DNA of 64,000 nucleotides from Rhizophagus irregularis (lineage: Eukaryota). The notes under the pieces were generated by a model that was given only the letters and a program-made list of their open reading frames with translations, did not search any database and was not told where the DNA came from. A program made the translations under genes and the position numbers. Within the stretch, counting starts at the first letter, position 1; the number at the start of each line of letters is the position of its first letter. The stretch lies in assembly GCF_026210795.1 (NCBI RefSeq), contig NC_089434.1, positions 186,001-250,000 of the forward strand, written 5' to 3'. Of the stretch, positions 38,077-38,868 are shown piece after piece.

Positions 38077-38868
38077 TTACCTCTCACAATCTGGAATAGG
38101 TACATCACAAATAAAATCCCCAAAATCATTCGGATTAGAAAACAACTTCTGTAAGAACTTATAAATCATATCAGCAGCCAATTCAGTCTTAGTGCCAAAT
38201 ATATTAACCTTACCAGATTTAGGCCAGATATGTACCCGAATCTTTGATGTGAAGACTATAACAATTTTAGAATGAATATCACCCGCATCATTCTTAATAT
38301 ACTTTATCGGAAAGGGGAGAATCTCACGAATACCATCTACAGATTCTAAAGCATATGCTAAGGTAGAAAGATGAATAAACTTATTACTCCCGATATTAAT
38401 CACAAATTTGTAATTACACAGGAGAGCCTTATTTCCACCCACAAGTTCTACAGAAGAAAACTCAGGTAGGGAACATTCAGAAAGGTAACGTAAGAAGATA
38501 GCAACAGGATCAAAAGACCCGAAAACTTGTATACTACCAGATCTAGGAAAATAACGAATGGTATGTACAGAATCAGCTAAAATGATAACAAACTCAATGC
38601 AAGCATTAAAAGTGCTACCATCCCCAGTACGTCGCCGTCTATTTAATGGATTGTCAGGTGTACTTCGTCTGCATCGCCTCTCACCTTTTGGTTTAGACAA
38701 GTACTGTTCATAACCCTCAAAAGCTTTATGAATAAAGTTGCTATTAATGGCAATAACATCCTTAGTAGGTTCAAGCTTATGACCAAGTACGGTGTAATCA
38801 AGCCCTTCAACATTGATCTTAAATTCAGTAACAGTAAGAGATGGAGTAAGTTCACTAAAAGTAAGCAT
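38077..38868 (-). CDS. TATA-binding-protein-like factor, asfarvirus B263R-like
   Basis: Two TBP-repeat motifs (IRYFPRSGSIQVFG; VHIWPKSGKVNIFG). AINSNFIH...GYE, GDGSTFNACIE and the terminal VPIPD match my recollection of ASFV pB263R. Confidence 0.8.
   Translation of the reverse strand: MLTFSELTPSLTVTEFKINVEGLDYTVLGHKLEPTKDVIAINSNFIHKAFEGYEQYLSKPKGERRCRRSTPDNPLNRRRRTGDGSTFNACIEFVIILADSVHTIRYFPRSGSIQVFGSFDPVAIFLRYLSECSLPEFSSVELVGGNKALLCNYKFVINIGSNKFIHLSTLAYALESVDGIREILPFPIKYIKNDAGDIHSKIVIVFTSKIRVHIWPKSGKVNIFGTKTELAADMIYKFLQKLFSNPNDFGDFICDVPIPDCER

Follow-up and report, generated by a model that had tools for sequence, protein, structure and literature searches.

Structure and gene content of the element

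The window, that is, the whole 64,000-nt stretch of Rhizophagus irregularis DNA that was analysed, contains a Maverick/Polinton-type element of 11,947 bp, in which an intact gene for a TBP of the Asfuvirales B263R family lies on the minus strand at 38077-38868. AGTAGT ends and a 6-bp target-site duplication (TSD) are hallmarks of Mavericks/Polintons. In the window, the CCACCT duplication read from the sequence at 36959-36964 is followed by a left TIR (36965-37345, plus strand, found by repeat search) that begins with AGTAGT and has internal AT-rich repeats; at the other end the right TIR (48531-48911, minus strand) ends with ACTACT and is followed by the second CCACCT (48912-48917). The 12-kb element of the preliminary description is hence real, being bounded by 381-nt TIRs (99% complementary) and by the 6-bp duplication.

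An inward-facing AATTGAAT motif (37333-37340, by motif match) lies in the left TIR, and behind it we placed, from ORFs and relatives, a conserved accessory gene of unassigned family (37370-38045, plus strand), whose 177-aa ORF continues in another frame and which encodes about 218 aa in the related locus L008. The TBP gene comes next, with an early-promoter-like motif, AATTTGAAC, 31 nt before its start (38900-38908, minus strand). A promoter-like block, AATTAAAT (38921-38942, plus strand), one change from the core and common to the TIR and polymerase motifs, precedes an F-box-like gene (38972-39484, plus strand), for which the Pfam match was below the cut-off (E 4.5e-4) and that of the L008 relative above it. 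Two 40-nt direct repeats stand directly behind this gene (39504-39589). On the minus strand follow a retropepsin-like aspartic protease region with DTGSD (39694-40549, frame change near 40056) and a Gag-like gene (40550-42901) with a coiled N-part, a capsid-like start MAGYAP and a CCHC zinc knuckle, spread over three frames in this copy. Head-to-head with gag lies a retroviral-type (rve) integrase (42889-43947, plus strand; PF00665, E 1e-8, above the cut-off). The family B DNA polymerase (43957-47850, minus strand) carries DANNLY, KLMNNSVFGK and YTDTDS, as well as an endonuclease VII-like insertion, and is broken up into an N-part of 166 aa, an ORF of 1052 aa and a C-terminal tail; before the N-part there is a further AATTGAAT motif (47878-47885, minus strand), then TATAAAAA. 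A 145-aa accessory ORF (48054-48491, minus strand), F-box-like by eye only and with no Pfam or PHROG match, stands behind the right-TIR motif. The element ORFs with no assigned family measure 145-218 aa.

We read the polymerase as putatively protein-primed: its family B motifs are present, OTU-like D..C and HY motifs were recognised by eye only, and no DNA_pol_B_2 or PDB match that would mark protein priming was obtained. RNA polymerase families were matched by none of the eight other element ORFs scanned, and the DNA polymerase ORF is the only one long enough for an RNA polymerase large subunit, in agreement with the earlier statement that the element has no RNA polymerase. Among the ORFs of the complete TIR-bounded element there was likewise no recognisable match to a double jelly-roll capsid, a penton or a packaging ATPase.

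The window's copy of the element is decaying or mis-assembled, with frame changes in the polymerase, gag, protease and accessory genes; at some of these sites, reads from other copies differ by single-base gaps. The Pfam matches of the Gag-protease part were mostly below the cut-off (Retrotrans_gag E 1e-4 to 0.03, protease E 2e-5 to 2e-4), and a Gag model (pLDDT 43) had no Foldseek match at E<=0.001, which leaves the capsid fold without confirmation. In four of six gag-protease junctions the protease is in the -1 frame behind an A-run, as in programmed frameshifting. Precisely, a 9-10-nt A-run joins gag to a -1-frame protease at L006:3161, L020:442, L036:2175 and window 25776, the junction being in frame in the window's 12-kb copy and +1 in L008. 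The A-run is thus a candidate programmed frameshift site in a DNA element lacking a reverse transcriptase.

Identity and fold of the TBP

The preliminary description had reported an intact 263-aa ORF with two TBP-like repeats. The reading frame is indeed whole over its 263 aa, and two repeats are present in the structural model. With the ORF as query Pfam gave no TBP match at E<=1, and a single-sequence PDB search missed the TBP fold. An AlphaFold2 model built from 46 relatives (pLDDT 89, pTM 0.78) has a strand-helix-strands-helix unit that occurs twice, corresponding to the two-repeat TBP saddle. When this model was submitted to Foldseek, rank 1 was an unnamed protein and rank 2, the best named viral match, was the B263R homolog of abalone asfa-like virus (E 7.5e-17, TM 0.75, 23% identity). 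The PDB rows listed at E<=0.001 were all TBP chains or TBP-containing complexes, and the structural matches among those listed were archaeal, fungal, plant and human TBPs, at 12-15% identity and with a best E of 5e-7. By sequence, too, TBPs are recovered when a profile made from 48 wider relatives is used (best E 2.3e-7), and the top Atlas clusters were mostly from Nucleocytoviricota, PF00352 being found in 34% of the members of the second one. For large dsDNA viruses, TBPs have been described (PMC11410667).

Viral contigs, when scanned, yielded 26 loci. The best-scoring partner of the element TBP among the viral loci compared was a 263-aa ORF of locus L040 (31% identity over 241 aa, E 2e-30), which has ORFs of 385, 646, 125, 412, 175, 66 and 1340 aa as neighbours. 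We take these sizes to match ASFV gene names. The L040 residues K49, N52, N54 and F90 carry the numbers printed for pB263R in PMC5825884. In a full-length homology test pB263R was closer to the element TBP than cellular TBPs were (31% over 241 aa vs 12-15%), which bears out the earlier claim, made from motifs, of a match to ASFV pB263R rather than to fungal TBP.

Origin and conservation of the TBP

The TBP tree comprised 91 proteins, was obtained by a quick search with SH-aLRT support only and did not include fungal TBPs among its rows. The 24 element-type rows, 19 of which were labelled by similarity, with surroundings known for some only, formed a single branch (SH-aLRT 99). It is nested in a 77-row branch (SH-aLRT 100) that also contains L040 and eight more viral-locus TBPs; outside it fell another nine viral TBPs and three PF00352 proteins. 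Hence the element TBPs group with asfuviral TBPs in this quick tree without fungal TBPs, and the proposed capture from a giant virus gains, from the Foldseek match, the L040 alignment and the tree, support for a source in the Asfuvirales. We regard an asfuviral origin as virtually certain; nesting of the element TBP within host TBPs would be very unlikely, because its identity to cellular TBPs is only 12-15%.

The capture is ancient and family-wide, and not peculiar to the window's copy. As for other copies, TBP relatives at 43-99% identity keep the same neighbours. The closest named relatives are hypothetical proteins of R. irregularis (56-95% identity), and one strain has at least four such gene models; not every annotated copy reaches 263 aa, and the clade reaches down to 38% identity. 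TBP relatives were found in 38 metagenome loci, of which 36 were element-type; another element gene was present in 29 of these 36, and pol, int, gag or protease in 11 of the 14 element-type loci of at least 3 kb. Locus L008, whose TBP is 55% identical, has the window's full order of polymerase, integrase, gag, protease, F-box, TBP and accessory gene. A more distant element clade (L013, L016-L019, L023 and L027) has ankyrin-repeat and F-box genes and several unassigned ORFs behind the TBP.

The two non-element loci, L037 and L038, are giant-virus contigs with capsid-like and VETF-like neighbours by eye. L037 is a 46.9-kb asfuvirus-like soil contig (GC 58%) in which we read by eye the order capsid, late-factor-like gene, TBP, small membrane protein and VETF large subunit, presumably the ASFV-type order.

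The dN/dS of the TBP was 0.06-0.56 in all 12 pairs computed and 0.06 between the window and L001 (dS 0.11). The TBP ORF is whole, whereas four neighbour genes in the window's copy are frameshifted. Judging from these codon comparisons, the TBP is kept by purifying selection in a fungal Maverick-type element, and it is very probably functional cargo of the element.

DNA face and outer segment of the TBP

The second helix of repeat 1 of cellular TBPs is on the outer surface, where partner factors bind. For pB263R, predicted DNA-facing residues have been named (PMC5825884), and in the element TBP the predicted DNA-facing residues N42, N44, F87, N88, F107, Q114, N152, R211, K220 and N222 are kept. 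Of the three aromatic positions two retain their residues (F87 and F107), while W215 stands at the third, where pB263R has F221. The segment Q114-L126, located after strand 5 and taking in the second helix of repeat 1, has a length of 21-22 residues in all 64 viral or distant (context-free) rows and 13-18 residues, with the proline gone, in 21 of the 24 element rows, the other three retaining the viral length. Much of the TBP surface beyond the DNA face is conserved too. Since the DNA-facing residues are kept and the outer segment is shortened, the element TBP likely binds DNA as the viral TBP does and would meet its partners differently.

Upstream promoter-like motif

A 22-nt block located 20-45 nt upstream is common to three element genes, one of them at both TIRs, and occurs nowhere else in the 64 kb. 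In an unsupervised search of 58 element upstream regions TGAATA was the top 6-mer (21 vs 3.8), and AATTGA, TTGAAT, ATTTGA and ATTGAA were among the top six 6-mers of 184 viral upstream regions; an EM search run on viral regions only returned TAAAATTGAA as third-best motif, behind two TATA-type ones.

We retained by hand 36 of the 58 element regions, after removal of shadow ORFs, internal starts and near-duplicates. The expression [AT]TTGAA[TC], which was set after the data had been seen, was found at -55..-16 in 16 of these 36 genes, which include orthologues, against 4 in antisense and a shuffle mean of 1.3 (max 5 of 500). At the same positions it occurred in 20 of 184 viral genes and in 13 of 486 flank tiles, the latter serving as background together with the antisense and shuffled sequences. 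It was present in 10 of 25 non-TBP element genes and in 2 of 21 genes of the larger element that neighbours it in the window. A matrix derived from viruses only matched 15 of the 36 element genes (shuffle mean 7.8, max 13), and a looser core was found upstream of 13 of 21 viral TBP genes (antisense 1). The gag and integrase genes lack the early motif, and no late-promoter motif was demonstrated before either of them.

The early core of ASFV, AAAATTGAAT, is described 15-16 nt upstream of the start site (10.1101/2021.07.26.453801) and, in the current view, is recognised by the early factor of the virion, the TBP acting at late promoters (PMC7163114, PMC11579359). The exact ASFV 10-mer was found within one mismatch in 2 of the 36 element genes and within two mismatches in 13, which is not above shuffles (mean 7.4, max 15). 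As regards promoter sharing with a helper, the core TTGAA[TC] is strongly enriched and the exact ASFV 10-mer is not, in a comparison with shuffled sequences. The element's upstream motif thus resembles, at the level of its core, the asfuviral early promoter.

Endogenous asfarvirus-like region and RNA-Seq data

A 1.5-Mb asfarvirus-like region with RNA polymerase genes has been reported in R. irregularis strain 4401, in one strain only and without a major capsid gene (PMC10640383). We counted 33 copies of the ASFV core in the endogenous virus sequence, about 16 being expected (hand estimate from base composition), with an ATG 20-24 nt after the core in 6 of 7 judgeable plus-strand rows (by eye). 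The element variant AATTTGAATA had 7 matches in the published endogenous virus and was not enriched. Six short words taken from the element terminus or the TBP start gave no occurrence in it. In the viral contigs searched, no relative turned up.

For expression, we used four 2026 RNA runs with the same species label, as raw counts unscaled to a control gene or to the fungal share. On the element region there were 49-162 reads of about 11 million, at about single depth and on both strands, and poly(A) RNA had a few GT-AG joints, located inside coding frames. This low signal is consistent with an element that is mostly silent and is transcribed in the nucleus at background level. Many partly aligned RNA reads whose loose ends contain AGAGTAGTA pile up at window 49263-49324, perhaps at the end of another abundant repeat.

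Neighbouring larger element

A second, larger element-like region (window 1-34900, GC about 38%) has its left end beyond the window and a right end that is not fixed. At 93-2687 it encodes a D5-like primase-helicase, and at 3083-4227 there are pieces that, by eye, may belong to a tyrosine recombinase. The region further contains a module of integrase, gag and protease (22529-26594), which is a homologue of the one in the 12-kb element, and an RNA-primed family B polymerase (29068-33078), 35% identical to the ASFV-type polymerase in L041. At 8348-10068 (plus strand) a Crinkler-like N-terminal domain, recognised by eye, is followed by a kinase ORF (Pkinase, E 6e-16). A palindromic 28-46-nt motif, AAAACCGTTCCC.CGGGGAACGATC, is repeated in both orientations (window 10303-10349, 12190-12240, 12841-12886 and 18049-18094). 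At window 21240-22385 (minus strand) there are a fragment of a P-loop ATPase with GGSDSGKT, which by eye resembles a packaging ATPase, and an ORF with a C-part 35% identical to a nuclease-like ORF of L037. A copy of the window's 112-aa ORF (28459-28797), 83% identical, adjoins a TBP-clade gene at L024:1567-1902, which suggests gene exchange between the two element types. The larger element might account for the "PolB-only viral regions", of which PMC10640383 reports 15-33 per genome.

Possible role of the TBP

The element could well be a satellite tapping giant-virus transcription, because it joins a conserved asfuviral TBP to virus-like promoter motifs. That it depends on a helper virus we consider rather probable; that its TBP plays the particular diverting role described here seems possible, with doubt somewhat outweighing confidence; and the whole reading, in which the element is a satellite dependent on a helper and its TBP turns the post-early transcription of a giant virus toward the element's own genes, appears close to evenly balanced. 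The integrated element would be near-silent until a virus of the Asfuvirales supplied RNA polymerase and early factor, which would read TTGAA(T/C) upstream of the genes for the polymerase, the TBP and the F-box protein and of the terminal genes. Next, through its intact DNA face, the TBP would attach to late-type promoters rich in AT and, its outer segment being altered, would rival the TBP of the helper, a competition that would favour the gag-protease and integrase of the element at the helper's cost. For the virophage-like lifestyle previously proposed, the early-promoter-like motifs and the endogenous asfarvirus-like virus in the species (PMC10640383) are circumstantial support; the element itself is not a virophage, since no jelly-roll capsid was found and a putative Gag-protease module is present instead.

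The element may also be an autonomous nuclear Maverick, which we consider unlikely but worth serious attention. In this case the captured TBP would serve the element alone, either as a promoter factor with host Pol II or by bending DNA at the AT-rich repeats of the TIRs while the element replicates or integrates, and the upstream motif would be the element's own promoter. In favour are the polymerase and integrase that the element itself encodes, its TIRs and TSD, which are near-perfect, the presence of at least four gene models in a single strain, and the reported recent Maverick expansion in R. irregularis, which nuclear life explains as easily; the low poly(A) signal with GT-AG joints indicates some nuclear transcription, although these splices cut coding frames, in either sense. 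In the same direction go the imperfect match to the ASFV core and an endogenous virus that is specific to one strain and without a major capsid gene. On the other hand, since the TBP shares only 12-15% identity with cellular TBPs, productive contact with host TFIIB/TFIID is doubtful, the upstream motif and its spacing from the ATG are like those of asfuviral genes (22-44 nt vs 15-46 nt), and the neighbouring element in the same genome is without motif enrichment.

The TBP as a pure poison, that is, a dominant-negative decoy on helper late promoters or a TFIIB trap serving fungal antiviral defence, is improbable in our judgement and differs from the satellite reading only in whether the element's own genes gain. 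It would account for a DNA face left intact beside an outer segment shortened despite its invariant length in viruses; an early-type motif would have the TBP made as infection starts, and the adjoining F-box gene could target viral proteins. Nevertheless, conservation extends over much of the surface beyond the DNA face, and the element would still need an expression route for gag and integrase, which lack the early motif. A neutral passenger acquired from an endogenous giant-virus region is very improbable. Asfarvirus-like DNA is reported in R. irregularis and some annotated copies fall below 263 aa, but the TBPs form a single clade spanning down to 38% identity and the ORF is intact beside four frameshifted genes; in fact, this explanation is largely refuted because dN/dS, well below 1, is 0.06 between the window and L001 at a dS of 0.11.

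Comparison with known systems

The element TBP shares with ASFV pB263R and other Asfuvirales TBPs the length of 263 aa, 31% identity, the fold and the DNA-facing residues, and many viral relatives also have an early-type motif upstream of the gene. The B263R gene is early, and its product has been proposed to work together with TFIIB at late promoters (PMC7163114, PMC11579359). Unlike pB263R, the element TBP is encoded by an integrating element of 12 kb in which neither RNA polymerase nor TFIIB was matched, has a shorter P-G..D.DG segment (after strand 5 of repeat 1) and carries W for the third Phe.

With Mavericks/Polintons, reported to be expanded in Glomerales (PMC11952901) and recently so in R. 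irregularis (PMC8647823), the element has in common the TIRs, the rve integrase, the family B polymerase, the AGTAGT ends and the 6-bp TSD. It differs in that no jelly-roll capsid, packaging ATPase or adenoviral protease was found and in having, besides a viral TBP, a Gag-like protein, a zinc knuckle and a retropepsin-like protease with a -1 frame relation. Mavirus-type virophages and helper-dependent PLVs likewise combine integrase and polymerase B, integrate into chromosomes and are predicted to rely on giant-virus promoters, and a virophage is reported to disturb late giant-virus transcription (PMC11464507). In contrast to these, the element lacks the virophage capsid module, has an early and not a late motif and resides in a fungal host, its reliance on a helper being putative.

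The Pacmanvirus lostcity transpoviron (pltv), described as using AAAATTGA and TATATA promoters (PMC11788076), is another linear element with TIRs and no capsid, linked to a virus of the Asfuvirales; as described there, it is a 7-kb episome with a helicase, whereas our element is integrated in the host genome and encodes a polymerase and an integrase of its own. The pGKL-type cytoplasmic VLEs of yeasts and fungi are comparable in their polymerase, which is protein-primed in VLEs and putatively so in the element, and in their TIRs and NCLDV-derived transcription genes, and their promoters are reported to be related to the ASFV early motif (PMC13348850, PMC7163114). According to these sources VLEs are episomal and encode an RNA polymerase and a capping enzyme, whereas the element has a TBP only.

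Judged on titles and abstract openings, with the original Polinton/Maverick papers, Repbase, the 2024 Polinton review and two recent PLV preprints outside the scope, we found no description of a TBP in a Maverick, PLV, virophage or transpoviron; titles and abstract openings likewise gave no helper-virus link for Glomerales Mavericks. The term "TBP" is absent from the main texts of PMC10640383, PMC11952901, PMC11788076, PMC13348850, PMC11296320 and 10.1101/2024.01.04.574182.

Implications

We tentatively propose that the Glomeromycotina Mavericks of this family may be integrated satellites of fungal Asfuvirales, with Gag-protease in place of the jelly-roll capsid, running on the giant virus's early promoter and using a stolen and re-shaped TBP to seize late transcription, a proposal that we hold with more doubt than confidence. 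If true, fungi would possess a defence system of a virophage-like kind, and the satellite would carry a basal transcription factor of its helper as a weapon. It also offers an explanation for the Glomerales-specific Maverick expansion.

No giant DNA virus active in mycorrhizal fungi is known, the evidence so far being one integrated asfarvirus-like region. The element family is widespread and has a selected asfuviral TBP and asfuviral-type early motifs, which suggests a long, possibly continuing association with such viruses, and it can serve as a marker for finding them. The element TBP is, finally, a natural variant of a poorly understood viral TBP, in which the DNA face is kept and the outer segment changed, and could reveal which surface matters for late transcription in Asfuvirales.
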